Part shown: positions 109-15,606 of the stretch, one piece after another
How positions within the stretch are numbered: position 1 is the stretch's first letter
How the letters are laid out: each line of letters opens with the position of its first letter
Source of the DNA: a virus
Length of the DNA stretch: 16,020 nt
Virus genome (UHGV): UHGV-0044882
Reading direction: 5' to 3' (one strand)
Made by a program: the position numbers and the translations under genes
Notes under the pieces: model-generated
Databases searched by the model: none
The model's input: only the letters and a program-made list of their open reading frames with translations
Told to the model about the DNA's origin: nothing

Positions 109-942
109 TCAGCAATTGGTCAGAGTGTCAGCGGGGGCGTTACCGCCTGTTGCACGCTGGCGGTAGTCCTGGCGGCTGTCTTCATGACTCAGCTTGTCCA
201 CCAGTTCGTTAAAGGCGGTTTGCTGTGCCTGCAGGGCAGTCTCCAGCTCAGACAGGCGTTCTTCCTGCTCAGACAGGGATTTTTCGGTGCGTGCGCTCAG
301 GTTCTGCTGCTCAGTGGCGACCAGCTCCACGGCCTTATGCACATCAGAGAACCGGGCGTCATCGGACTGCTCTTTTTTGGTAAACAGCGCCGTGACGCGG
401 GCAAACAGGGACGGTTTGTCGTCCTGGACTTCTTCCAGTTCGATCACCGTTTCCTCTGCGGCGGTAAAGAGATTGGCGGGATTCTGCTTGCGGTTTGCCA
501 GCGGGTTATGGGCTGCACTGGCGCTGAATGTCAGCATTTCAGTGCCCAGACTGGCAGGGTCATCAGTGGCAGCCAGGCCGACCAGGTAGGCTTTGCCCGT
601 ATCAGCGAACTTCGGGCTGACTTCCATAGAGGTGAATAATTTCTGGCCTTTTTTCACCAGTTCCACCAGGGACTCCGTTGGCTCAACGTCAGCATACAGC
701 GCCATCTTGCCTGCCAGCGGACCTTCCGTGATTTCTTCAGCAAACAGCGCCGTCACCTTGCCGTAGCGGTTAAAGGTGCTGTCCGGCAGATAAGACTTGA
801 TGTGCTCAAGGTTAATCAGCGCGGTATACACCGCCGGGTTATAGCTGGCTGCCATCTGTTCCAGCCATTCACGCTGGATTTCGCGTCCGTCGGTGGTGGC
901 ACCTTCCACCCCGATGCGAAAACGCTTTGCTTTCACTGTCAT
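109..942 (-). CDS. O: Capsid scaffolding protein gpO
   Basis: 277 aa with RIGVEG..DGR, INLEH, YLVGLAATDDPASLGTE and C-terminal ATGG..C motifs typical of the P2 gpO scaffold family. ATG at 942..940, GGAG about 8 nt upstream. Confidence 0.9.
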   Translation of the reverse strand: MTVKAKRFRIGVEGATTDGREIQREWLEQMAASYNPAVYTALINLEHIKSYLPDSTFNRYGKVTALFAEEITEGPLAGKMALYADVEPTESLVELVKKGQKLFTSMEVSPKFADTGKAYLVGLAATDDPASLGTEMLTFSASAAHNPLANRKQNPANLFTAAEETVIELEEVQDDKPSLFARVTALFTKKEQSDDARFSDVHKAVELVATEQQNLSARTEKSLSEQEERLSELETALQAQQTAFNELVDKLSHEDSRQDYRQRATGGNAPADTLTNC

Positions 943-1020
943 GAGCCGTGCTCCGTTAGAAAAAACTTACTGGAGCCTTATGGTTGCGGTGATGGGGGCA
1001 GTGAAACAATGCGCGGTATT

Positions 1021-1038
1021 TGTACCGACAACCACACA
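1021..1038. promoter_or_regulatory. TGT-N12-ACA dyad in the O/P divergent intergenic region; candidate Ogr/Delta-type late activator site
   Basis: Sequence tgtaccgacaaccacaca. P2 late promoters carry a TGT-N12-ACA element near -55. The centre is about 55 nt from a putative O transcript start near 975. Motif match only. Confidence 0.3.
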
Positions 1039-1084
1039 AACCGCAGGCGGGGAAAGCCTTCATTCAAGGCTGTAGGTTTGTGCC

Positions 1085-2851
1085 ATGAACACCACACTGA
1101 CACCCGCAGATCTCGATCCCCGTCGGCAGGCCATGCTGCTGTACTTTCAGGGATACCGCGTAGCCCGCATTGCTGAAATGCTGGGCGAGAAAGTTGCAAC
1201 CGTTCACAGCTGGAAAAAACGCGACAAGTGGGGTGACTATGGGCCGCTGGATCAGATGCAGCTCACCACCGCCGCACGCTACTGCCAGCTCATTATGAAG
1301 GAGCACAAAGAAGGGAAAGATTTCAAAGAGATTGACCTGCTGGCGCGCCAGTCGGAGCGCCATGCGCGGATCGGCAAGTTTAACAATGGCGGCAACGAAG
1401 CCGACTTAAACCCTAACGTCGCCAACCGCAACAAAGGCCCGCGCCGTCAGCCGGAAAAGAACGTTTTCACCGATGAACAGATTGAGAAGTTGGAAGAAAT
1501 CTTCCATTCCTCCATGTTCAACTACCAGCGCCACTGGTGGGAAGCCGGAAAAACCAACCGCATCCGCAACCTGCTGAAGTCACGCCAGATCGGCGCGACC
1601 TTCTATTTTGCCCGTGAAGCCCTGATTGACGCCCTGCTAACCGGGCGTAACCAGATTTTCCTTTCCGCCAGCAAGGCTCAGGCCCACGTCTTTAAGCAGT
1701 ACATCATCGACTTCGCCAAAGAAGTGGAGGTGGAGCTGAAAGGCGATCCGATGGTGCTTCCTAACGGGGCCACGCTGTACTTCCTCGGCACCAATGCCCG
1801 CACGGCCCAGAGTTACCACGGCAACCTGTATCTGGATGAATATTTCTGGATACCGAAATTCCAGGAGCTGCGCAAAGTGGCTTCCGGTATGGCTATTCAC
1901 AAAAAATGGCGACAAACCTATTTTTCCACGCCATCCAGCCTGACACACAGTGCTTATCCGTTCTGGTCCGGTGCGCTGTTCAACCGAGGGCGCAACAAAG
2001 CCGATAAGGTGGACATCGACCTGTCCCACAGCAATCTGGCCCCCGGCCTGCTGTGCGCAGACGGGCAGTACCGCCAGATAGTCACTGTGGAAGATGCGGT
2101 GCGCGGCGGCTGTAACCTGTTCGACCTCGACCAGTTGCGCATGGAGTACAGCCCGGACGAATACCAGAACCTGCTGATGTGTGAGTTCGTGGACGATCTC
2201 GCGTCTGTGTTCCCACTCAGCGAGCTGCAGGCGTGCATGGTGGACAGTTGGGAAGTCTGGACCGACTTTCATGCACTGGCCCTGCGCCCGTTTGGCTGGC
2301 GCGAAGTGTGGATCGGATATGACCCGGCGAAAGGTACGCAGAACGGCGACAGCGCCGGATGCGTGGTGGTGGCGCCGCCAGCCGTGCCGGGCGGTAAGTT
2401 CCGCATTCTTGAGCGTCACCAGTGGCGCGGAATGGACTTCCGCGCCCAGGCTGACGCCATCAAAAAACTGACCGAACAGTACAACGTGACCTATATCGGT
2501 ATCGACTCAACCGGCGTTGGTCACGGGGTTTACGAGAACGTGAAAGCGTTTTTTCCTGCCGTCCGGGAGTTTGTCTACAACCCCAACGTTAAAAACGCCC
2601 TGGTACTCAAGGCCTACGACATTATCAGCCACCGCCGTCTGGAGTTTGACGCCGGACACACCGACATAGCGCAGTCCTTTATGGCAATCCGTCGCGCCAC
2701 CACCGCCAGTGGCAACCGCCCGACCTATGAAGCCAGCCGCAGCGAAGAAGCCAGCCACGCCGATCTGGCCTGGGCAACGATGCACGCACTGTTTAACGAA
2801 CCGCTGCAGGGCGAATCCGCCAATACCAGCAATATTGTGGAGATTTTTTGA
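1085..2851 (+). CDS. P: Terminase ATPase (large) subunit gpP
   Basis: 588 aa, matching P2 gpP in length and position (upstream of Q, divergent from O). Stop TGA 2849..2851 overlaps the Q ATG at 2851. Confidence 0.9.
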   Translation: MNTTLTPADLDPRRQAMLLYFQGYRVARIAEMLGEKVATVHSWKKRDKWGDYGPLDQMQLTTAARYCQLIMKEHKEGKDFKEIDLLARQSERHARIGKFNNGGNEADLNPNVANRNKGPRRQPEKNVFTDEQIEKLEEIFHSSMFNYQRHWWEAGKTNRIRNLLKSRQIGATFYFAREALIDALLTGRNQIFLSASKAQAHVFKQYIIDFAKEVEVELKGDPMVLPNGATLYFLGTNARTAQSYHGNLYLDEYFWIPKFQELRKVASGMAIHKKWRQTYFSTPSSLTHSAYPFWSGALFNRGRNKADKVDIDLSHSNLAPGLLCADGQYRQIVTVEDAVRGGCNLFDLDQLRMEYSPDEYQNLLMCEFVDDLASVFPLSELQACMVDSWEVWTDFHALALRPFGWREVWIGYDPAKGTQNGDSAGCVVVAPPAVPGGKFRILERHQWRGMDFRAQADAIKKLTEQYNVTYIGIDSTGVGHGVYENVKAFFPAVREFVYNPNVKNALVLKAYDIISHRRLEFDAGHTDIAQSFMAIRRATTASGNRPTYEASRSEEASHADLAWATMHALFNEPLQGESANTSNIVEIF

Positions 2852-3885
2852 TGGGAAAGAGTAAGAAGAACCGCGCTGCGGCGACGAAACAGATCCAGCT
2901 TAAAAGTCAAACTACAGCCGAAGCATTCAGCTTCGGCGATCCCGTTCCTGTTCTGGACCGCCGAGAACTGCTGGATTATGTGGAATGCGTACAGATGGAC
3001 CGTTGGTATGAGCCGCCCGTCAGCTTTGACGGACTGGCGCGCACCTTCCGCGCCGCCGTGCATCACAGTTCCCCGATTGCAGTAAAGTGCAACATTCTGA
3101 CCAGTACCTATATCCCTCATCCGCTGCTCAGCCAGCAGGCTTTTTCGCGTTTTGTGCAGGACTATCTGGTATTTGGTAACGCCTACCTGGAGAAACGCAC
3201 GAACCGATTCGGTGAAGTTATCGCTCTTGAGCCTGCGCTTGCAAAATACACCCGACGCGGATTAGACCTAGATACCTACTGGTTTGTGCAATACGGTATG
3301 ACAACCCTGCCGTATCAGTTCACGAAAGGCAGCATTTTTCATCTGATGGAACCGGACATCAACCAGGAGATCTACGGCCTGCCCGGTTATCTTTCTGCCA
3401 TTCCGTCAGCCCTGCTCAACGAGTCCGCCACGCTGTTCCGCCGCAAGTATTACATTAACGGTAGCCATGCAGGCTTCATCATGTATATGACCGATGCCGC
3501 GCAGAACCAGGAAGATGTGAACAACCTCCGCAACGCAATGAAAAGCGCCAAAGGCCCTGGCAACTTCCGCAATCTGTTTATGTACTCGCCTAACGGCAAA
3601 AAGGACGGACTTCAGATTATCCCGTTGTCAGAGGTCGCAGCGAAGGATGAGTTTTTGAATATCAAGAACGTGAGTCGGGATGACATGATGGCAGCACATC
3701 GTGTGCCGCCGCAAATGATGGGGATTATGCCGAGTAATGTTGGGGGGTTTGGGGATGTGGAGAAAGCCAGCCGCGTCTTTGTTCGCAACGAGTTGATACC
3801 TCTGCAGAAGCGCCTTCAGGAATTGAACGACTGGCTTGGAGAAGAAGTCATGCGTTTTGAAGATTATAATTTAGGTATTGAATGA
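2851..3885 (+). CDS. Q: Portal (capsid portal vertex) protein gpQ
   Basis: 344 aa from ATG 2851 (the track's first M is TTG at 2848), the same length as P2 gpQ. Translationally coupled to P (TGATG). Confidence 0.88.
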   Translation: MGKSKKNRAAATKQIQLKSQTTAEAFSFGDPVPVLDRRELLDYVECVQMDRWYEPPVSFDGLARTFRAAVHHSSPIAVKCNILTSTYIPHPLLSQQAFSRFVQDYLVFGNAYLEKRTNRFGEVIALEPALAKYTRRGLDLDTYWFVQYGMTTLPYQFTKGSIFHLMEPDINQEIYGLPGYLSAIPSALLNESATLFRRKYYINGSHAGFIMYMTDAAQNQEDVNNLRNAMKSAKGPGNFRNLFMYSPNGKKDGLQIIPLSEVAAKDEFLNIKNVSRDDMMAAHRVPPQMMGIMPSNVGGFGDVEKASRVFVRNELIPLQKRLQELNDWLGEEVMRFEDYNLGIE

Positions 3886-3954: not shown

Positions 3955-4620
3955 TTAAAGATCCGGATCTACAGGCTCATGATATAGATTTACAGGGTAA
4001 TGAATAACTTCATAATTCAGTTGAGTAACTGTGTGAACATGCTGGCTATAAAAAACCAATGGATTTTTTTGACAAGGAGTAATCGTTATAGATTTACAGG
4101 CATGAATTCTTGGTGCGAATTTATCTAAATGCGCCTTCCAGTTGCTCATCATTTCATTACATTTTCTATTACGAGTATAGATAATCAATCCACCACTTGC
4201 GCTGTCTACGGTCCCTGTACTATATCGTTCAGTGAGTTGAGCATACCCTTTAAATAAATAACTATATGAAGATGTATGTTTTTTGGCTTCGCCATGCCAA
4301 ATATAATCCTTTAGTTTTATTGTAATATCACAATGTCCGCGCTGATTATTTTCATGAAATGCTTCAATGCCCATATCTTTATTTTTGATATTGGCCAATA
4401 AAATTAAAGTAAGCTGATCTTCTGTTAAATCGAAGTTTAACTTATTTGAATTCTCTTCTATTTCCTTTACAGCAGAATCAAGTTCAATCCTGACAAATTG
4501 TTTGAAATTATCGTACGATTGAAGTGCAAATCTAACACGAGTAATAGAAGCATTAATACGCTGAAGAAAAATATCATTATCAATATCAGCCAAACTCATT
4601 GCTGCAGACATTTTTAACAT
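3955..4620 (-). CDS. Hypothetical protein, third gene of the AT-rich operon; weak PD-(D/E)xK-like nuclease motif
   Basis: 221 aa, ATG 4620..4618 overlapping the stop of the upstream gene (ATGA), stop TAA 3957..3955. Segment GHCDITIKLKDYIWHGEAKKH has a D then E-x-K spacing compatible with a PD-(D/E)xK core; this is inference by eye, not a domain hit. Confidence 0.6.
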   Translation of the reverse strand: MLKMSAAMSLADIDNDIFLQRINASITRVRFALQSYDNFKQFVRIELDSAVKEIEENSNKLNFDLTEDQLTLILLANIKNKDMGIEAFHENNQRGHCDITIKLKDYIWHGEAKKHTSSYSYLFKGYAQLTERYSTGTVDSASGGLIIYTRNRKCNEMMSNWKAHLDKFAPRIHACKSITITPCQKNPLVFYSQHVHTVTQLNYEVIHYPVNLYHEPVDPDL

Positions 4621-5054
4621 CAGATAATATCCTTTGATTTAGATTCATCTAATGTAAAAAAAGGAAATACGAATGACTTATAGTCATACATAAGCTCCCC
4701 TGTAAATGGGTTTGCTAAAGATTGACTGATTTCCGCCTCAATAACTTCCTCTATTTCAAGTTCTACAGGGTCATGAAAATCATCAATGAACCAATAATTG
4801 AGTTTTAAAAAATCAACCTTTGGGCTACAAAGAATTTGTATGGCCGGATAGATAACCTGCTCATACGTTTCTGGCTGTAAAACCTTATTATAACCACCAG
4901 CTATATTAAATAAATCCTTATAACTTAAGGCTATATTTGATGATTTTTTAGCCCTTGCCTCGATTTCATCGTACAAATAGCAAGCTAACGCCCCAATTTC
5001 AGGGCGTTCTGCACACATTTCTTTGATGATCTTGGGCATATCACCATCCTTCAT
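4620..5054 (-). CDS. Hypothetical small acidic protein, middle gene of the AT-rich operon
   Basis: 144 aa from ATG 5054..5052 (track lists a TTG start at 5066). GGAG 7 nt upstream. Stop TGA overlaps the start of the downstream gene at 4620. No recognisable motif. Confidence 0.55.
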   Translation of the reverse strand: MKDGDMPKIIKEMCAERPEIGALACYLYDEIEARAKKSSNIALSYKDLFNIAGGYNKVLQPETYEQVIYPAIQILCSPKVDFLKLNYWFIDDFHDPVELEIEEVIEAEISQSLANPFTGELMYDYKSFVFPFFTLDESKSKDII

Positions 5055-5066
5055 TGCTGACTCCAA

Positions 5067-6173
5067 TTATAATATCAGCTTTGTGAGGGTTTCGAAATCA
5101 TCTTTGGATATACATTTACTTAATATAGCATAGTTAACAGGAGAGCAACTACTCCCTCCTAGATGCCTGCGGAGTGTTCCCGGAATGATAAGCTCTACGT
5201 TATCCGCTAATTGCAGTTTTGGATTATTTCTATCAACTCTAATTCCAATACGATACAAACCAATACTGCCTACTGCTTTGATGCCTTCCTTATTAAACAA
5301 ATCATCACGTAAGTCTTTAGTGGCCACATTTTTCTTTTCTTTATGCGTAGTCCCCTCATTCGTCAAAAATGACAAATCAAAGACTTTATAGCTTAATTTT
5401 GAATAAGGCAATGAATTTTGTTTGAAAATTAGCTCAATTAACGGATAAAAATCTTTTTCCGATGATTTAAATTCATAACCGACATGATTATACAATTCAC
5501 GAATAATGTTACTCTTTGCAAAAGTAACATTATCACCAATAATATTACCATTAGTATCTACCAAAACATGAATTTTATTAGTAACAGAGTCTAATATACA
5601 GACATCAAAACATTGTCGCTTTTCTTTTCGCTTTGCAATAATTTCATCAAACTGCTTGTATTGCGCAAGTGCTGACGGGGGAATTTTTTCTCTTACAACT
5701 AATTCTCTGACAGATGAAAAAACAAGTATTGACTGGGTGTTTTGAATAGAATAATTAACAAGTTCAGGTTGATTTTTTACAGCATTTTGCAATTGGACAT
5801 CATCAAGGATCGAATCAACCAATAATGATGGTTGATTCATCAAATTCCATTGAAAACTAAATCTGTCATTTAGTGTTTTAATTACACTATTATCTACAGT
5901 CAAACTAAATATTGCTTTTTCACCATAAACGACCTGACCAAAAATTAGGTCATTTACGTTTGCCATAATGCCATCAAACTTTTGCCTATCTTTACTTTTA
6001 AGATCAATGAGGCTTTCTAGTATTTTTTCGTTTGTTGCTTCACGCCCCCTACCTGTTGGCAGCCCTAAAGACGCAATAATTGGCCTTGCAACGTTCCATG
6101 TGAAACGTTCAGTTAAGGTCAAGATCGACTTTAACTCAGACTCAGAAAGCACTACTGGGACACTACCTGTCAT
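5067..6173 (-). CDS. Hypothetical protein, first and largest gene of the AT-rich operon
   Basis: 368 aa from ATG 6173..6171 (track lists GTG at 6182), AGGTG 7 nt upstream, stop TAA 5069..5067. No Walker A, HExxH or nucleotidyltransferase motif found by eye. Confidence 0.62.
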   Translation of the reverse strand: MTGSVPVVLSESELKSILTLTERFTWNVARPIIASLGLPTGRGREATNEKILESLIDLKSKDRQKFDGIMANVNDLIFGQVVYGEKAIFSLTVDNSVIKTLNDRFSFQWNLMNQPSLLVDSILDDVQLQNAVKNQPELVNYSIQNTQSILVFSSVRELVVREKIPPSALAQYKQFDEIIAKRKEKRQCFDVCILDSVTNKIHVLVDTNGNIIGDNVTFAKSNIIRELYNHVGYEFKSSEKDFYPLIELIFKQNSLPYSKLSYKVFDLSFLTNEGTTHKEKKNVATKDLRDDLFNKEGIKAVGSIGLYRIGIRVDRNNPKLQLADNVELIIPGTLRRHLGGSSCSPVNYAILSKCISKDDFETLTKLIL

Positions 6174-6322
6174 AACTTGCACCTAGTCATCCAAAAAGCA
6201 ATAAGAATTTGCTCTTGTCTTAATTTATCCTTCGATACCTAACAAATTACCTCAATGTTGAAAAAATTTGCAAGCCATTTGCTTCTAAAAAGCGACCTTA
6301 CTCAGAGTGTTACAAAACTAAG

Positions 6323-6351
6323 CGAGCGCGCGCTCGTATCCCCGCCACGCC
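6323..6351 (-). other. Candidate cos (cohesive end) site with adjacent GC palindrome
   Basis: Reverse complement of 6333..6351 is GGCGTGGCGGGGATACGAG. Its first 13 nt match the 186 cohesive end as I recall it (GGCGTGGCGGGGAAAGCAT); 14 of 19 match P2 (GGCGAGGCGGGGAAAGCAC). The G-rich strand is the one expected downstream of Q. A 14-bp palindrome cgagcgcgcgctcg sits at 6323..6336. Confidence 0.45.
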
Positions 6352-6372
6352 TGCCCGCTTTGTGTAGTGGTT

Positions 6373-6476
6373 TTCATGCAGGTGCATGACATAAGCAAAA
6401 GCCCGCCAGAACTGGCGGGCCTGCATCAAAACGATCCTCAAACGATCATGCGTTCTCATGCAGCATAGTCATGCAC
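6373..6476. repeat. Cluster of short iterated motifs beside the cos-like site
   Basis: TCATGCA(G/C) at 6374..6381, 6456..6463 and 6469..6476, plus an inverted copy at 6383..6390 forming a dyad with the first. AAACGATC direct repeat at 6429..6436 and 6440..6447. Confidence 0.4.
6396..6420 (-). terminator. Rho-independent terminator, minus strand
   Basis: Stem gcccgccag / ctggcgggc (6401..6420). On the minus strand it is followed by TTTTGCTTAT. Confidence 0.45.
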
Positions 6477-6637
6477 GGATGAGAGAAATGAATGCGCGTA
6501 TCCAAATGCCCGTTAGAAAAACGCAGATGAACTAAAAAAGCTTAAGGTCTACTATGAGCGAGAAACGGACATTTAATTTTCGAGTAGTGGAAATCGAAGC
6601 CAGTACCTGCCGGAGCCATAGTATCGAAACCACGAAC

Positions 6638-6664
6638 AATAAAAAGCCTGGAAATATCCAGGCT
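6638..6664 (-). terminator. Rho-independent terminator after the oxidoreductase gene
   Basis: Stem agcctgg / ccaggct with loop aaatat (6645..6664). On the minus strand it is followed by TTTTTAT, 36 nt after the stop at 6700. Confidence 0.6.
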
Positions 6665-6699
6665 GCGCAAGACTCATTTATAGAATGCTGCGGTAAGGA

Positions 6700-7692
6700 T
6701 TACTCAACGGTCACAACTATTTTGCCGACCTGTCCATTGGACTCCATATAGCGCTGGGCGTCTGCAATCTCTTCGAACGGGAACGTCTTATCGATGACCG
6801 GCTTCAGTTTGCCGACTCGCAAGCCTTCTGTGATAAAGGATTTAGCGCGCGCCATTTTTTCAGAGTCCGTCGTGATTTCAAACAGCTCATATCCACGCAG
6901 GGTGAGATGCTTACCGAGAATATCAAATACAGGCACAAGCATGTCACGGCTATCGAGCGCGCCGTACTGGAAAAACATACCCTGTGGTGCCATCACCTGC
7001 GTCAGTTTTGCCACGTCCGGCCCACCGACGGGATCAAAAACAATATGGGCACCTGCGCCATCTGTTGCACGACTGATTTCAGCAACCATATCCTGCTCCG
7101 CAGTAGCAATGACGGCGGCTGCGCCAGCTTTAAGGAGCATTTCGCTTTTTTCAGAGGTCCGTGTGAGTGCAATTGGGTTTGCACCCAGCATGTTAGCAAT
7201 CTGTATGGCAGCCAGACCCACGCTGCTTGATGCTGCGCGGATCACGACATTCTGACCAGCCTGAAGGTTGCCATACTCAACCAGCGCACCATAAGCGGTG
7301 ACATACATCATCCAGCTTGCGGCGGCTTCCTCGAATGAAAGGTTTTCAGGATGCTTTACGACAGCATGAACCGGTGCGTTGACCACTTCACCATACATGC
7401 CGTATTCATTAAACATAAATGAAGGGATCACGCTTACCCGATCTCCAGTGGTAAACTCATCTACATTCTCACCTACTGCCTGTACAACGCCGGCCGCTTC
7501 ATAACCAAGACGTGCCGGAAATTCCGGCTCAATAACATATTGGCCGTTGCGGTACATGATTTCTGCACGGTTGATACCTATCGCATGTACGCGGATCTGC
7601 ACTTCACCCGCTGTCGGTGCAGGCACCTGCACATCAACAACTTCCAGCACTTCCGGGCCACCGGTGCGGTTAAAGGTAATAACTTTAGACAT
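6700..7692 (-). CDS. MDR-superfamily NAD(P)H:quinone oxidoreductase-like (zinc-type alcohol dehydrogenase family)
   Basis: 330 aa from ATG 7692 (track TTG at 7698). N-terminus MSKVITFNRTGGPEVLEVVDV and a Gly-rich nucleotide-binding stretch AASSSVGLAAIQ resemble E. coli Qor-type quinone reductases. Confidence 0.85.
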   Translation of the reverse strand: MSKVITFNRTGGPEVLEVVDVQVPAPTAGEVQIRVHAIGINRAEIMYRNGQYVIEPEFPARLGYEAAGVVQAVGENVDEFTTGDRVSVIPSFMFNEYGMYGEVVNAPVHAVVKHPENLSFEEAAASWMMYVTAYGALVEYGNLQAGQNVVIRAASSSVGLAAIQIANMLGANPIALTRTSEKSEMLLKAGAAAVIATAEQDMVAEISRATDGAGAHIVFDPVGGPDVAKLTQVMAPQGMFFQYGALDSRDMLVPVFDILGKHLTLRGYELFEITTDSEKMARAKSFITEGLRVGKLKPVIDKTFPFEEIADAQRYMESNGQVGKIVVTVE

Positions 7693-7841
7693 ATTCAACT
7701 CTCTTCAGTTAAAGGCACACCTTCAGAATAATGCCGAAGGGATGCCCGAATCATTTGTGAACAATCTACGTTGTTACGAACACACCAGAAATAGCTGAGA
7801 GGGAACTTCAGTATTAATTATCCATTAACAATCCGCCTGCT

Positions 7842-8744
7842 TCAGCGGATCTGCGTGGCCAGAATATCACTGAACCAGTCGATAAAGACGCGCACTTTTG
7901 GAGAAAGGTAGCGCCTGTCGGGATACATCACTGACACGGGCTTTGACACCGATGGGTATTGCGGCAGAATCTCTTCAAGAGCGCCGGAAGCAATATGGGG
8001 AGCAACGGCATCATAGGTAGCCTGGATAATGCCCAGACCAGCCAGAGCACAAGAAAGCAGAATATCGGAATTATCAACCAGCAGGCTGCCCGCAGGACGT
8101 AGCGAAACAATGCTCCCGTCTTCGATAAACTTCCATTCCATGACGTCACGACTGTGGTCGCTAAAAAAGTTAATTGCCCGATGTTTATCCAGATCCGCAA
8201 GTGTTTCTGGCCGCTCATGCTGCTGCAGGTAAGACGGGGCTGCACAGGTAACCATCCGGATGTCACCAAGACGTCTGGATATAAAACTAGAATCTTGAAG
8301 CGCCCCCAGGCGGACAAGGCAATCTACGCCTTCCGTAATCAAATCAGTTTTTTTATCGGAAGAAACCAGCACAACTTCAATACCTGGATACAGTGCCTGA
8401 AAATGCCTGAGATTAGGGATCAATATGGAATGCGCCAGCGCCAGGGGCACATCAAGTCTCAGGCGTCCTCGCGGTGGAAGTGTCGGTGAAAAACTGGCCA
8501 TCATGTCATTAACTTCGGCCAGAACATGCCTAGCATGATGATAGAACTCATCCCCTTCAGCAGTAACGCTCAGCTTTCGGGTTGTGCGATAAATGAGTTT
8601 TACACCCAGATCATGCTCTATCTGCTGTATCGCTTTGCTCACAGTGGGGCGATGAATCTGAAGTACATCAGCAGCTTTCGTGAAGCTACCCTGCTCAACA
8701 ACCTGTATGAAAATATTTAGGTATTCAATCATGTTGGCATGCAC
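7842..8744 (-). CDS. LysR-family transcriptional regulator (LTTR)
   Basis: About 300 aa. N-terminal HTH signature VVEQGSFTKAADVL..PTVSKAIQQIEHDLGVKLIYRTTRKLSVTAEG followed by a co-inducer domain. Start is GTG 8744 (AGGTGA 5 nt upstream) or ATG 8732. Confidence 0.85.
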   Translation of the reverse strand: MHANMIEYLNIFIQVVEQGSFTKAADVLQIHRPTVSKAIQQIEHDLGVKLIYRTTRKLSVTAEGDEFYHHARHVLAEVNDMMASFSPTLPPRGRLRLDVPLALAHSILIPNLRHFQALYPGIEVVLVSSDKKTDLITEGVDCLVRLGALQDSSFISRRLGDIRMVTCAAPSYLQQHERPETLADLDKHRAINFFSDHSRDVMEWKFIEDGSIVSLRPAGSLLVDNSDILLSCALAGLGIIQATYDAVAPHIASGALEEILPQYPSVSKPVSVMYPDRRYLSPKVRVFIDWFSDILATQIR

Positions 8745-8966
8745 GTGCTCACCTGTTTTGTAGGCTGTTCAAAACCGACATTGTAAAGTAAACCATCCCA
8801 ACGACATTATTTCTTTTCGTTCAGATAAGGGCTTTCTGACTGTCACAATGTCCACTTCTGGCACAAAGCGGACGACCATTTTCAAATGGCCGTCGCATCT
8901 AACACCTCGTTTCACTCATTGTTCAACCTTACCCCCATCAGAAGGAATTCTTTCGGGGGCAACGTT

Positions 8967-9200
8967 TCAGTGTAACCAGCTGTCGTCTTCCCAGACCTGC
9001 TGCAGAATTTCCATTACACGTTCCTTATCTTCAGCCTGTCTTACCCCGCTAAGTTCAATACCATTGGCGCTGCCCTTGCGGATTCGGATAGCTGTTTTTG
9101 GGTAGAGGGGGCGCAAATTTCGGTAAAGCTCGGATTCAAGTGCTTCTAAAAGCACCTGGCTAATTTTCTGCTCTTTATCGATCATTATTTCAATGCGCAT
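8967..9200 (-). CDS. DinI-family protein
   Basis: 77 aa from ATG 9200 (MRIEIMIDK..). Aligns by eye with E. coli DinI along its length, including the C-terminal EILQQVWEDDSW versus DinI EILQETWESADDW. SD AGGGGA upstream. The track ORF extends to 9245, but the internal ATG fits the family. Confidence 0.8.
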   Translation of the reverse strand: MRIEIMIDKEQKISQVLLEALESELYRNLRPLYPKTAIRIRKGSANGIELSGVRQAEDKERVMEILQQVWEDDSWLH

Positions 9201-9210
9201 AGATTTTCCC

Positions 9211-9399
9211 CTAACAGGTAACGTCCATTGTTCGGCTGTATTCATGGTTGCGGATTTTCGCCATCAGCTCGTCAGTCAGCTCGGAAACCCACTGGATGGC
9301 CAGCCCCTTCTCTTCATCACTACACTCACTAGCCGCTACAAGCTTAAGAAAAAAATCAATGCGCTGGAGCTTCAAAGACTCCAAAAAATAGTCCTGCAT
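9211..9399 (-). CDS. Small SOS-regulated protein; possible Tum-like antirepressor N-terminal module
   Basis: 62 aa, ATG 9399..9397 with strong SD AGGAGG 5 nt upstream. Lies directly downstream of a LexA operator; stop TAG is 10 nt before the DinI-like ATG. Function inferred from position only. Confidence 0.5.
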   Translation of the reverse strand: MQDYFLESLKLQRIDFFLKLVAASECSDEEKGLAIQWVSELTDELMAKIRNHEYSRTMDVTC

Positions 9400-9425
9400 C
9401 TTTCCTCCTATGACACCAAAACAAT

Positions 9426-9459
9426 ACTGTATATATAATCACTGTTTATATTTACAGTA
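9426..9459. promoter_or_regulatory. LexA operator (SOS box): one perfect box plus an overlapping imperfect box
   Basis: 9442..9457 ctgtttatatttacag is a perfect CTGT-N8-ACAG. 9426..9445 tactgtatatataatcactg matches the left half of the consensus, with the right half CAC instead of CAG. Confidence 0.7.
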
Positions 9460-9482
9460 TATAATAATCTTACTGATGTAAA
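9456..9482 (-). promoter_or_regulatory. Candidate sigma70 promoter of the SOS operon, overlapped by the LexA box
   Basis: Minus strand: -35 TTTACA (9482..9477), 15-nt spacer, -10 TATACT (9461..9456), with the -10 overlapping the CTGT of the perfect LexA box. Spacer is short, so the assignment is approximate. Confidence 0.4.
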
Positions 9483-9551
9483 ACGTTTTTTTACGTTCAT
9501 CAGCCTGATATGCCTGGTATTATTAAGAGCACGAATTGTTAACCCGCGTAA

Positions 9552-11972
9552 TTAATACAGCTCCCGCCACTTATCATCTTCCTGCAAACGCTGGTTCCGA
9601 TAGAAGATACGCAGGCCTGCTCCTGACGGAATACTGCCGCCGCAAAGGAGTAAATCGACTTCTTTCTCGCTGCCATCAAATCCTCTGGACTTCAGTTCAT
9701 AGACGAGCTGCTGTCGCTGATGGTCTGTAATTCGCTGTTTGTAGTCTTTACGCCGTTTCGGTTTCACCTGGCGTAACCTTGCAGCCAGTTCCCGGCGCTC
9801 TTTTTTGCTCATACTGTGCAGGTAATCGTGCAACTCCTTGTCATCCATGCGGGTAATGTCCGTTCTGGTATCCCCATCAGCTGATTTGTCGTTCCCTTGT
9901 TGGCTCAAATTTTCAGCAAGGGGACAGTTATTGCCACGAGTCCGAGTCCAAGGGGCGCAAGCGCCCTGGTCGGCTGCCGCCTCCTGAACGTCAACGGCCT
10001 TACGAACCATTTTCCACTTCACGGCATGAGTGCAGATCTTGCCCTCTGCAATAGGTGACCAGATGCCATAAATACGAATGCCGTGATCGCCATAGACGGT
10101 CGGCTCTTCGTTGATTTCATAAGCAGTTCTGATGAGGTGATATTTGCGGGGAACCAGTACGCCACCCTGCTTCATGATGTAGGTGGCAAAACAACCAGCA
10201 TCAGCAGCAGCCAGAATGGCATCAAGGCGCGGGTTATCCAGTACCGGCGCACCTGCTTTTTTGTCCCCCTGTTGCCTTGCCGCCTGACCAGCCAGCAATC
10301 GCAGTTCACGGTAAGCCTGACGCCCCGGAATGCCAAAGAAGCGGAATTGCTGAACACGATGCAGAGACGCCCAGGCATTAACGTATTCAGCATTCTCACG
10401 CAGGGATTTCCCCGTTTCCTTGCTGATCTCGCCAGCCAGACCACGCCCGTCAATGTTCTTACTGATGTATTTCGCGATGTAGCTTGTTGGCGTACCTTTG
10501 CGCGGGTTAATCAACTCAGACTTAAAGCGCGGCCCAGTGTTATTGCCCAGCTCCTCGCGGTCTTCACGGATGGCAAACTTACGCAGTAATGCAGTGATGG
10601 TGCGGCGGTCTTTTTTGCGCATAAAACACAACAGGTGCCAGTGAACTGTACCGTCATGATGCGGCTCAGCCACCCGCACGCCATACCACCGCAATCCGGC
10701 TTTGTGCATCGCCTTACGAAATGCAGCAAACATGCCGACCAGATAATCACTGCTTTGTCTTACCGTCGCATTTGTCCAGGTTGGGTTGGGCCTGCCGTTA
10801 TTTAGCGTGGAATGGAAACGTGACGGACAGGTGATGGTGTAGAAAACGGCGCAGTCACCGCGCATTTCCGCGATAAGCTCCAGACCTTTAACACAGGCCA
10901 TCATCTCATTGCGGCGATGCGCCGGGTTGCTGCTGCTGGCGTTTACCACATCCTCCATGTCCAGCGTGTCGCCCTCTTCGTTCACCAGTTCATGAGAACG
11001 GAAAAACTCCAGCGACTTACGGCGCTGCTCACGTTTATGCATCACGGCTTCATAGCTGACATAAGGAGATGCTTTTTTGCTGACAAGGCAGACTGCACGC
11101 AACTGCTCTTCCCGCCATTCGCAACGCATCTTCCATAATTTCCGATACCACCAATCGGCGCACAACATACGCGCCAGCGAACCCGGAATGAGTTCATAGG
11201 GCACGGGTTTACGGCGGTTTCTTTTCCGACGGAGTTGCTCAAACGCAGGCGGGATGACATCCAGACGCAGGGTTTCCGCTGCCACCCTTTCCCATGTATT
11301 GCGGATTTCTTCTGGCTTAACGTCATCGGTGGCATACAAATCGCCACAAGCGGCATCAAGGCACATACTCATATGCGCAGCTACCAGGGTGGACAGGCGT
11401 TTCACCTGATCCTGACTCATTTCAGGCAGGATCAGCAGGCCGTCCAGCCCTTCATGGCTTGCCATAAAGCGAAAAGATGCAGATAGCTGACTGTCGCGTA
11501 CATGCTCCAGTCGTTCCAGACATGGCTTAATCGTCTCACGTAAATAGCGGGAATAAGCCTTTGGCCTGCCCAGGCTGCTGAAGTATTCAATACGTTGCAT
11601 CAGCGGCTTGCTGATATGGGAAGGCTGGGCGTTGACGTCCGCCAGAATGACCATATCCGGATTAAAACGCTGCTGCTCATGCGCCAGCTTTGCCCGACTA
11701 ATGAGCTTATCCTGTTCCATTTCGCGCTGGACAGGATCACGGGATTCATTAAAGAAATAACGCTCCCAGACCTGATCACTCAGCGCCTCACGGCGCAGCT
11801 GTTCCTGCTCGTTATCGGCAGCGTACAGAGTGATCAGGTTTGAAAGCGTAGAAACCGGCGCAACTTCCACCGGGTCCAGATAAGGGTTAATGGCCTTTTT
11901 CGGGCTGTTCCATGAGAACGATGCGGCAGCTTCGTTAAAGCCGCAGCAGTTGTTCATATCGGCATGACTCAT
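9552..11972 (-). CDS. A: Replication initiation protein gpA (rolling-circle nicking endonuclease)
   Basis: 806 aa at the position of P2/186 gene A. Contains a paired-tyrosine segment YIAKYISKN of the kind found in gpA-type initiators. ATG 11972 overlaps the Dam stop. Confidence 0.85.
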
Positions 11973-14891: not shown

Positions 14892-14974
14892 AAGGCAACA
14901 TTCCTTCTAGATATGGCTTGTGGCGAGCCGTTGTTTGTCGTGATTAGTAGTGAAGGCTCCAAAAGAACACTTCT

Positions 14975-15009
14975 GGTTCAACTTTAAGATCGCTTTTGGA
15001 ATCTGTCAA
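14975..15009 (-). promoter_or_regulatory. Candidate early lytic promoter (pR/Pe equivalent)
   Basis: Minus strand: -35 TTGACA (15009..15004), 17-nt spacer, -10 TAAAGT (14986..14981). Sits 28 bp upstream of the cI start and points toward apl, as in the 186 face-to-face switch. Confidence 0.4.
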
Positions 15010-15036
15010 CGAATTTTGGATTTCTTTGGAGGACTT

Positions 15037-15606
15037 GTGGATTTCAATAGCGGCGGTAAGAAAGCCATAGAACGTTTAGTTGAAGCATATGGGTTCGGTA
15101 CCCGTCAGGCTCTCTGTGATCATTTAGGTGTTTCTAAGAGCACCATGGCAACGCGCTATATGCGTGATATTTTTCCAGCAGATTGGGTAATCCAGTGCGC
15201 CCTTGAAACGGGCACCTCGCTTAATTGGCTAACAACAGGGCATGGTTCAAAGCAAGCATCAGCAAATACAAATACTATGGAAGTTGCTAAATATGTATTA
15301 TCTGATGGGGCCTTGTGTGAAGACGGTTTTTATATTTTCGATAGGGAATTTCTACCGTCGGCATTCAAGAATATTTTTGCAATCACAGATAATAATTCTG
15401 AATTTATTTGTGATAAGGAATTTGATGATATACGTGATGGTAAATGGGTAATAAGTATTGATGGCGAAATAACGATCCGTGACATTACTCGTTTACCCGG
15501 TGGAAGAATCTTCGTCGAGGGTGGAAACAGAGCCTTCGAATGCAAGATAGAAGACATTGAAATAATTGGTAAAATTATAAGTTTAACAGTCAAGTATGTT
15601 AAATAG
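15037..15606 (+). CDS. cI: CI-type immunity repressor (186 CI family)
   Basis: 189 aa from GTG 15037 with GGAGGA 4 nt upstream (the longest ORF starts at GTG 14950). N-terminal HTH region [23 protein letters not shown] and a C-terminal oligomerisation-type domain. Length is close to 186 CI (192 aa). Confidence 0.72.

Follow-up and report, generated by a model that had tools for sequence, protein, structure and literature searches.

Tum of phage 186 is a demonstrated antirepressor that binds the CI repressor (Shearwin et al. 1998, as cited by Lemire et al. 2011, PMC3121763). According to the 186 record, the tum gene is located just downstream of gene A and behind the LexA-controlled promoter p95, with a LexA box lying over the -10 region. 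Tum is encoded as one fused polypeptide of 146 aa, and an internal GTG start additionally gives rise to a DinI-like product of its own, about 76 aa long. Lemire and colleagues (2011, PMC3121763) described a split tum for both Fels-2 and PSP3, in which the antirepressor is the upstream half, and cited Bunny et al. (2002) for this split; the activity of the split upstream gene is given there second-hand, as a personal communication on PsP3. As related in the same paper, Bunny et al. (2002) attributed the lethality of lexA-null mutations in Salmonella to Fels-2. In the PsP3 record, tumA (60 aa) is annotated as 'similar to 5' end 186 tum; UV induction of prophage' and tumB, encoding a DinI-like protein of 77 aa, as 'similar to dinI and 3' end of 186 tum'; the two genes reside downstream of gene A and behind a LexA box. 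A comparable arrangement is provided by the GfoA/GftA operons of the Salmonella Gifsy prophages, which are LexA-repressed and encode a small antirepressor, directed against a non-cleavable repressor, together with a DinI homologue (PMC3121763); however, they feature the reversed gene order (dinI first) and other antirepressor and repressor families, and belong to lambdoid rather than P2-like hosts. The two-gene reading of tum is already known from the literature and from GenBank annotation, and the case presented here is real but ordinary in this respect; a literature search for tumA and tumB retrieved nothing relevant.

The window analyzed in this study, i.e., the whole stretch of 16,020 nucleotides from the virus genome UHGV-0044882, very probably carries a two-gene version of 186 tum, namely the SOS operon of a P2-like prophage (Peduoviridae) of the Fels-2 type, acting by the mechanism set out below. 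The replication endonuclease gene A (positions 9552 to 11972, minus strand; Pfam Phage_GPA, E-value 2.3e-127) is the upstream neighbor and ends 155 nt ahead of a 62-aa ORF (ORF62; 9211 to 9399, minus strand, ATG at 9399), a TumA-like gene predicted to encode an antirepressor. The Shine–Dalgarno sequence AGGAGG, as read from the sequence, is located 4 nt ahead of this ATG (9404 to 9409, minus strand). ORF62 is followed, after a gap of 10 nt and in a different reading frame, by a TumB/DinI-like gene (8967 to 9200, minus strand, ATG at 9200, stop at 8967) encoding 77 aa, whose ribosome-binding site AGGGGA (9212 to 9207, minus strand) overlaps the ORF62 stop codon. The sequence-only reading of this DNA had described just such a module, a 62-aa ORF with a strong ribosome-binding site followed 10 nt later by a DinI-family gene, in the tum position of 186, and this description was recovered in each of its parts. 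The 186 record also agrees with the size of 146 aa quoted there for Tum, and the combined length of the two products, estimated at about 140 aa, amounts to 139 aa (62 + 77).

The same order of gene A, operator, 62-aa ORF, 10-nt gap, and 77-aa DinI-like gene was found in Fels-2 (Salmonella prophage, genus Felsduovirus; STM2728 and STM2726.1), where the module DNA is approximately 87% identical to the window, the small protein (STM2728) shares 93% identity with ORF62, and hardly any difference exists in the promoter and double LexA operator. Fels-2 differs downstream: its DinI-like gene is followed by an ORF of 243 aa, and that of the window by a hairpin and then by cargo, a LysR regulator and a Zn-dependent dehydrogenase. 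To place the module in a wider frame, related loci were searched with a five-sequence alignment of the ORF62 family, and 32 loci from different species were obtained, in which DinI copies were detected by tblastn. In 25 of these 32 loci, the distance from the end of a gpA homologue to the ORF62 homologue downstream of it is 119 to 233 nt. The AGGAGG(G) ribosome-binding site is conserved across related loci, and the position downstream of gene A, close to the right end of a P2/186-like genome, is common to the window, 186, PsP3, Fels-2, and Cartapus.

Regarding the second gene, its product matched Pfam DinI (PF06183) with an E-value of 2.3e-23 and 82.7 bits (cut-off 24.2) over profile positions 2 to 63 of 63, and aligned to residues 71–145 of 186 Tum with 40% identity (E-value 6e-24), in accordance with the DinI-like C-terminal half ascribed to Tum in the sequence-only reading. 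The NCBIfam equivalog for chromosomal E. coli DinI (NF007893) yielded 51.8 bits, below its cut-off of 111, and the protein appeared, by eye, close to PsP3 TumB. By its sequence, it is to be classified as a phage paralogue of the TumB type and not as an orthologue of host DinI. Family membership suggests that it may bind RecA filaments and modulate the SOS response; in Gifsy prophages, induction was not significantly altered by non-polar dinI deletions (PMC3121763).

The relationship of ORF62 to Tum was less apparent, since pairwise BLASTP between ORF62 and 186 Tum returned no alignment and profile methods were accordingly needed. The ORF62-family profile matched residues 6–48 of Tum with 33.9 bits (E-value 7e-13), the best of 20,000 shuffles reaching 12.1 bits, and hhalign of the family against the N-terminal half of Tum gave 97.9% (E-value 5.6e-13). 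The reciprocal Tum-N profile recovered ORF62 at an E-value of 7e-6 and PsP3 TumA at 5e-7. PsP3 TumA is nearer to the 186 Tum-N family by this value, and its match to the ORF62 family was marginal (E-value of approximately 0.002 in a single comparison); a core motif, C-x3-D/E-x-x-LAL/I-x-(L/W)-(I/V)-(A/S)-(E/D)-L, is common to TumA and ORF62. At the level of sequence profiles, and there alone, ORF62 is recognizable as a homologue of the N-terminal, non-DinI half of Tum. The alignment of both ORFs to Tum, set beforehand as a check of the proposed split, thus succeeded for the DinI half by pairwise comparison and for ORF62 by profile, and the two-gene version of tum stands with both halves homologous; a linker of approximately 20 residues in the fused Tum has no counterpart in the window.

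The median dN/dS of ORF62 was approximately 0.07 at a dS of approximately 1 (27 orthologues), and, judged by this ratio, ORF62 is a real gene under strong purifying selection. Its family comprises 66 clusters at 50% identity, mostly of about 55 to 75 aa; in the few longer members, the match is positioned away from the N-terminus. An AlphaFold model proposed a two-helix hairpin (pLDDT 88). Neither Pfam nor NCBIfam contained a family covering ORF62, and a profile search of PDB sequences with the ORF62 family gave nothing up to an E-value of 1. The small gene is spread over Enterobacterales and about a fifth of the complete E. coli genomes. Nearly everywhere, current annotations call its product a hypothetical protein, the E. 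coli genomes with this label numbering more than 1,100. A family model bearing the name TumA would sharpen the prediction of SOS-inducible P2-like prophages.

The presumed target of ORF62 is the CI repressor encoded at positions 14950 to 15606 on the plus strand (Pfam Phage_CI_repr, 3.1e-31; Phage_CI_C, 2e-26), the true start of which is probably located about 30 codons inside this ORF. It can be aligned with the CI proteins of 186, 813R9, Cartapus, and SEN8 and, from these sequence matches, is a repressor of the 186 type, which is also the type of the cognate repressor of Tum, rather than of the P2 C type or the lambda-type cleavable CI. Such a repressor fits induction by DNA damage and the earlier proposal that the prophage is SOS-inducible like 186 and unlike P2. 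The best match of the window CI among all phage CI proteins in the collection was 57% identical, and, by sequence, its immunity type is distinct from every one of them. Among five CI proteins compared, the N-terminal domain shared 70–82% identity within the ORF62-type phages and 40–44% with 186 CI, whereas the C-terminal domain shared 24–48% throughout; in this comparison, antirepressor type and CI N-terminal domain go together.

The function of ORF62 as an antirepressor is inferred for this locus from its relatives. Of the alternatives considered, the one surviving best, although improbable, retains SOS control of the operon and assumes that ORF62 is not directed against CI, but serves the DinI-like protein as a small partner or regulator, or acts on the host as an SOS effector, the prophage being induced, if at all, in another way. 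ORF62 is 82–93% conserved among phages whose whole CI proteins are just 39–57% identical to that of the window, which, for the sequences compared, is unexpected for a specific antirepressor–repressor pair and appears to be only partly accounted for by the conserved CI N-terminal domain. The predicted fold is also that of a generic helical hairpin: Foldseek searches of the model against the PDB returned only such structures, with a best E-value of 1.9 and no informative neighbor. Moreover, tum of the related prophage BTP5 is transcribed, yet no infectious phage was detected (PMC7067206). These points are opposed by the homology of ORF62 to the non-DinI part of Tum, the CI-binding antirepressor of 186 in the account given by Lemire et al. 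(PMC3121763), by the annotation of PSP3 tumA with UV induction, by the lexA-null lethality put down to Fels-2 (Bunny et al. 2002, as cited there), and by the co-variation of the CI N-terminal domain with the antirepressor type. In addition, the DinI gene is missing beside the ORF62 homologue in 14 of the 32 loci, which argues for the small protein being an autonomous unit and not merely a partner of DinI.

The sequence-only reading had further noted a perfect LexA box and an overlapping imperfect one over a candidate promoter, and both boxes are present on the minus strand. The candidate promoter, as read from the sequence, consists of the -35 hexamer TTTACA (9482 to 9477), a 17-nt spacer, and TACTGT (9459 to 9454), and its geometry resembles that of the annotated 186 promoter p95 (TTCACA, 18 nt, TACTGT). 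TTTACA or TTCACA is kept at the -35 position in nearly all of the 32 related loci. LexA box 1 (TACTGTAAATATAAACAGTG; 9440 to 9459, minus strand) agrees with the consensus at 17 of 20 positions and overlaps the candidate -10 element, be it TACTGT or, alternatively, TATACT (9461 to 9456). Its core CTGT-N8-ACAG (9457 to 9442) is the sole perfect core within the window. In a scan with the consensus TACTGTATATATATACAGTA and a limit of three mismatches, box 1 was the only 20-mer of the window retained, and none was found in 200 window shuffles. LexA box 2 (CAGTGATTATATATACAGTA; 9425 to 9444, minus strand; 16 of 20, read from the sequence) is perfect in its right half and degenerate in the left one (GTGA), with its core at 9442 to 9427. 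It starts 15 nt after box 1, so that the two 16-nt cores have one base in common.

It is very improbable that these LexA-like sequences are AT-rich palindromes devoid of a regulatory role, with the operon being expressed constitutively or by read-through from gene A. The bare CTGT-N8-ACAG core did arise in 33 of the 200 window shuffles, a generic sigma-70 scan of positions 8700 to 9700 called no minus-strand promoter, the candidate tum-type promoter included (its one plus-strand match lies within the operator), and the terminator scan found no canonical terminator between gene A and ORF62. However, a 20-mer match at 17/20 was absent from all shuffles, 31 of the 32 loci retain a LexA-like box ahead of the ORF62 homologue although the flanking sequence diverges, and box 2 recurs at the identical +15 offset in 20 of them. 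In 186, the homologous site carries the annotation of the p95 LexA operator, the double box differs little from colicin operators characterized by experiment (PMC2994835), and a lysogen could not remain stable if it produced an antirepressor constitutively. The 17/20 box over the -10 element, the second box, and the conservation in 31 of 32 loci point to a tum-type operon under a predicted LexA-repressed promoter.

The idea that the two ORFs are the remains of a once-fused 146-aa tum inactivated by a frameshift or nonsense mutation, or a product of sequencing error near 9200 to 9250, where the sequence-only reading had suggested a possible frameshift, with the small ORF being functionless, is the least credible of all and was rejected: a summed length near that of Tum, the 10-nt spacing in different frames, and the loose wording 'split by a stop codon' in the literature (PMC3121763) speak for it, but the split is conserved in genera of the Enterobacterales, the two-ORF layout with a gap of 8–13 nt recurring in 17 loci of other species and the split also being found in Fels-2, RE2010, Cartapus, many Klebsiella phages, and 1,125 of the 5,426 complete E. 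coli genomes, while each ORF possesses its own ribosome-binding site, ORF62 shows the low dN/dS given above and persists in loci without DinI, no fused protein with an ORF62-type domain occurs among the 66 cluster representatives, and 186 itself yields a separate DinI-like product from its internal GTG.

Under the preferred reading of a LexA-controlled two-gene tum operon, LexA would occupy the two adjoining boxes over the -10 region and the transcript start in the undamaged cell and keep the operon off. Upon DNA damage, RecA-stimulated self-cleavage of LexA would free the promoter, and a bicistronic mRNA would be produced. Its first product, the 62-aa predicted two-helix hairpin homologous to Tum-N and, more distantly, to PsP3 TumA, would act as an antirepressor binding the 186-type CI, probably via the N-terminal DNA-binding domain of the latter. 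CI would be kept off its operators, the early lytic promoter would fire, and induction would proceed without cleavage of CI. The second product, the DinI-family TumB equivalent to the C-terminal half of Tum, would most likely act on RecA filaments, adjusting how strong the SOS signal is or how long it lasts, and is proposed to be dispensable for the antirepressor function. The prophage in the window is, on this reading, almost certainly inducible by DNA damage, by way of an antirepressor rather than by repressor cleavage.

Box 2 distinguishes the operator from those of 186 and PsP3, which both feature a single LexA box; the intergenic gap of PsP3 is 3 nt instead of 10 nt. The window operator can be aligned with colicin E1-like and alveicin promoters and has the colicin-type layout, i.e., two 16-nt cores overlapping by one base and placed over the promoter, including the same non-consensus GTG(A/G) left half of box 2. 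Against the operator of a colicin E1-like plasmid, the window matched at 31 of 34 nt and at all 21 nt spanning box 2. In colicin operators, the double SOS box is occupied cooperatively by two LexA dimers, with delayed induction, and untimely lethal expression is prevented (PMC2994835); in the literature searched, no assay of cooperative LexA binding or delayed induction on a tum operon was found. Both operators control a product that is lethal to the cell when expressed (PMC2994835), whereas the controlled genes differ, being bacteriocin and lysis genes on small plasmids in one case and a prophage antirepressor in the other. For the tum operon, tighter repression and a later, threshold-like induction than with the single box of 186 would be expected.

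The likeness of the operators may reflect either common descent or convergence on the preferences of LexA. A tentative proposal, rather unlikely as a whole, is that the Fels-2-type cassette of about 75 nt and the colicin double SOS box are the same mobile element by descent or exchange, and that, in addition, the TumA-like hairpin recognizes the conserved CI N-terminal domain. If so, the cassette would represent a portable 'late, all-or-none SOS' switch ahead of cell-killing genes, and a hairpin recognizing the N-terminal domain, conserved in CI proteins that otherwise diverge, could make the cross-induction of heteroimmune P2-like prophages possible. The colicin-like double operator and the tracking of the CI N-terminal domain by the antirepressor type offer testable leads as to when induction occurs and how specific it is. 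Cross-induction by an antirepressor was shown for Gifsy phages.

Downstream of the module, a stable G+C-rich hairpin lacking a U-tract is located just past the stop codon of the DinI-like gene (8929 to 8962, minus strand). The 76-nt stretch holding it (8975 to 8900) folds with -24.1 kcal/mol (z = -2.78), and the terminator scan of positions 8700 to 9700 called no terminator, the hairpin included; the structure possibly represents the operon end or an RNA stabilizer. The 186 record places a terminator, t95a, at the corresponding position, and orf97, which is absent from the window, follows tum in 186. PADLOC matched none of the five cargo genes to a defense system, and the P2 cos sequence was not found within three mismatches.

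The elements that a sequence-only reading had combined into a LexA-controlled, split or two-gene version of the phage 186 antirepressor gene tum (8967-9482) were all found where it had placed them, on the minus strand. The replicase gene A (11972..9552, minus strand; Pfam Phage_GPA, E 2.3e-127) terminates with TAA and, as read from the sequence, is followed by a conserved TTTACA (9482..9477), LexA box 1 (TACTGTAAATATAAACAGTG, 9459..9440, starting 17 nt after TTTACA) and the overlapping LexA box 2 (CAGTGATTATATATACAGTA, 9444..9425). AGGAGG (9409..9404) precedes the start codon of the small ORF, ORF62, which translates into 62 codons from the ATG at 9399 to the TAG at 9213..9211, and the DinI-like ORF of 77 codons begins 10 nt later (ATG 9200, ending at 8967). 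An inverted repeat, CTGATG-AACGT-A7-CGTT-TTA-CATCAG (9473-9503, minus strand), is located 3' of the gene A stop and ahead of the tum promoter, overlapping the -35 hexamer; it is shared by the window, Fels-2 and one further locus (L006), and is missing from most other loci.

For comparison, 31 loci from 31 Enterobacterales species (32 loci counting the window) were collected, with genera including Citrobacter, Enterobacter, Kluyvera, Raoultella, Serratia, Pantoea, Erwinia, Tatumella and Klebsiella. The two-ORF layout, with a gap of 8-13 nt, was present in every locus having the DinI-like gene (18/32, including the window), and the median dN/dS of ORF62 was 0.07 at dS ~1 (27 full-length orthologues). 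A frameshift or sequencing error as the origin of the split, which the sequence-only reading had considered, is therefore ruled out by purifying selection and by the recurrence of the layout across species. Among those 18 loci, the DinI-like copy is truncated in two (L014 and L033) and carries an internal stop in another (L012), and in the remaining 14 of the 32 loci (L004, L020-L025, L027-L032 and L034; positions 3689 onward) the small ORF directly adjoins diverse, variable and unrelated genes. The small ORF is therefore an autonomous unit with the DinI-like gene as an optional companion, a partner that evidently is often lost. Of 5,426 complete E. coli genomes, 1,125 also contain the module, and among the matches listed the small ORF carries the label 'hypothetical protein'. 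The family as a whole bears this label nearly throughout, a few records reading 'levan regulatory protein' instead.

The resemblance of the small ORF to the N-terminal region of Tum was confirmed at the profile level, while a pairwise BLASTP comparison of the 62-aa product with 186 Tum found nothing and searches of Pfam, NCBIfam and PDB sequences with this product gave no match. Exhaustive searching of 1.8 billion cluster representatives yielded only 66 relatives, mostly of ~55-75 aa and none fused to DinI. When 29 of these were made into a profile, it matched residues 6-48 of 186 Tum (33.9 bits; E 7e-13 as a single comparison), compared to a top score of 12.1 bits among 20,000 shuffled Tum N-termini; hhalign of the ORF62 family against the Tum N-terminal family gave a probability of 97.9% (E 5.6e-13), and the reciprocal Tum-N profile recovered ORF62 (E 7e-6) and PsP3 TumA (E 5e-7). 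By these comparisons, the 62-aa protein is a true, though diverged, homologue of the half of Tum that is not DinI-like. The common core reads (I/L)-(E/Q)-R-(V/I)-(E/D)-x-(I/F)-x-(R/K)-L-x-A-x-x-x-C-x-(E/D)-x-(D/E)-(R/K)-x-(I/L)-A-(L/I)-x-(L/W)-(I/V)-(A/S)-E-(I/L). In the AlphaFold model of ORF62 (pLDDT 88), helices 2-23 and 28-61 form a two-helix hairpin, the conserved Cys immediately preceding its turn; no informative structural neighbour of this fold was found in the PDB. Homologues of the 186-type Tum N-terminus (P0183-P0302) likewise stand alone for the most part, as proteins of 63-91 aa, several of them called 'Tum protein'; fusion into a 146-aa protein, as in 186, may therefore be exceptional and not ancestral.

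The proposed kinship of the second ORF with the DinI-like C-terminal half of Tum likewise held, since its 77-aa product matched Pfam DinI far over threshold (E 2.3e-23) and aligned without gaps to 186 Tum residues 71-145 (40% identity, E 6e-24). Its score against the NCBI equivalog model for chromosomal DinI was far under the cut-off (51.8 versus 111 bits), and the protein is therefore a phage DinI-like paralogue and not host DinI. A stable, G+C-rich hairpin lacking a U-tract (8929-8962, minus strand) is located 3' of the DinI-like stop codon; the 76-nt stretch including it (8975..8900) folds with -24.1 kcal/mol (z = -2.78), and the hairpin flank falls within the DNA matches of phage Cartapus and E. 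coli prophages, and outside the Fels-2 match.

The two-gene interpretation is thus correct, yet it re-derives published knowledge. In the GenBank record of PsP3, tumA (60 aa) is described as 'similar to 5' end 186 tum; UV induction of prophage' and tumB as 'similar to dinI and 3' end of 186 tum'; the Fels-2 record ties its DinI-like gene to PsP3 TumB, and Fels-2 STM2728 is 93% identical to ORF62. In Lemire et al. 2011 (PMC3121763), Tum is likened to a fusion of an antirepressor with DinI. A small correction to the wording of the literature is needed, namely that the two genes of the window are not parted by a simple in-frame stop: their frames differ, 10 nt lie between them and each has its own ribosome-binding site, and the ~20-residue linker of 186 Tum has no counterpart. 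With the observation confirmed and the system known, the modest added value lies in the annotation gap, as the ORF62 family has no Pfam or NCBIfam model although the module occurs in about a fifth of complete E. coli genomes, and in side observations on the CI domains and a colicin-like operator.

Box 1 is the sole perfect CTGT-N8-ACAG in the window, a bare core that is not rare by chance (33 of 200 shuffles have one), and also the sole 20-mer with at most three mismatches from the full LexA consensus (0/200 shuffles). In box 2, the right half is perfect and the left half degenerate (GTGA in place of CTGT). A LexA-like 20-mer (at least 15/20) was detected upstream of the ORF62 homologue in 31 of the 32 loci, the single exception having a decayed small ORF, and box 2 lies at exactly +15 in 20/32. 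The TTTACA hexamer and the subsequent TA-TACTGT are conserved across loci between variable flanks. The annotated 186 promoter p95 has the same geometry, its LexA site likewise covering the -10 region. 186 and PsP3 have one LexA box each, compared to two in the window. A generic scan for promoters gave no call at the minus-strand tum promoter, because TACTGT is a poor -10 under its rule, and the assignment of TTTACA/TACTGT as candidate operon promoter therefore rests on conservation and on analogy with p95. On the plus strand, a near-consensus sigma-70-like site (9410-9439; ATGACA, 18 nt, TATAAT; 11/12) lies inside the LexA operator and is directed towards the gene A 3' end, to which it would be antisense; it may be no more than a by-product of the AT-rich, palindromic operator.

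The 64-nt tum operator (9412-9475, minus strand) matched 572 plasmid records (412 predicted to be mobilizable), with matches located, for example, at L040:1501-1542, L041:1501-1545 and L042:408-454 (operator-matching plasmid loci). In pAlvA, the match lies directly upstream of a colicin-like pore-former gene (alveicin), and in a 5.9-kb Shigella sonnei plasmid upstream of an ORF whose N-terminus appears colicin E1-like. Alignment of the window (CTGTAAATATAAACAGTGATTATATATACAGTAT) with the colicin E1-like plasmid (CTGTATATAAAACCAGTGATTATATATACAGTAT) revealed 31/34 identical positions, box 2 being identical over 21 nt, and the likeness to the plasmid operators extends partly into the 5' UTR (TGTTTT..GTCAnAG(G)AGG). 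The Fels-2-type tum operator therefore shares the double SOS box architecture of colicin operators, being almost the same as the boxes preceding colicin E1-like and alveicin genes on small mobilizable plasmids, and the double box plausibly makes induction tighter and later than with the one box of 186. The resemblance may have arisen by descent or by convergence on the preferences of LexA.

The best-supported model leads from LexA via the TumA-like protein to CI; the present analysis shows its sequence-level steps, and the biochemical ones are inferred from 186 Tum and from what is reported for PsP3 and Fels-2. LexA would keep the operon repressed via the double box; upon its removal after DNA damage, the TumA-like hairpin would be produced, bind CI and block CI-operator binding, so that the lytic promoter fires, and the DinI-like protein would modulate RecA filaments. 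Across phages with a whole CI just 39-57% identical to that of the window, the ORF62-type proteins keep 82-93% identity. In the four CI proteins paired with an ORF62-type protein, the N-terminal helix-turn-helix domains share 70-82% identity and are only 40-44% identical to that of 186 CI; identity of the C-terminal domain ranges from 24% to 48% throughout, and from 29% to 48% within the ORF62-type group. As a lead and not a result, given that five CI sequences were compared, the antirepressor type appears to follow the CI N-terminal domain. The conservation of this domain within otherwise divergent repressors suggests it as the antirepressor target. Such a pattern would suit a protein that prevents DNA binding, and cross-induction may be possible between heteroimmune relatives.

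The window represents the interior of a P2-like prophage, in the order scaffold O, terminase P and portal Q (109-3885), a five-gene cargo block (3955-8744, minus strand), the tum-type operon, gene A, a Dam methylase, a DksA-like zinc-finger gene, a DUF5347 gene, CII, an Apl-sized ORF and the 186-type CI (14950-15606, plus strand). Fels-2 has the same gene order, and the isolated phage Cartapus carries the same module ~1.1 kb from the right end of its linear genome. The cargo block occupies the variable right-end region of P2-like phages. Three of its proteins (221, 148 and 371 aa) had no match in Pfam, NCBIfam or PADLOC; the others, a Zn-dependent alcohol dehydrogenase (6700-7698, minus strand) and a LysR-type regulator (7842-8744, minus strand), are unusual phage cargo.
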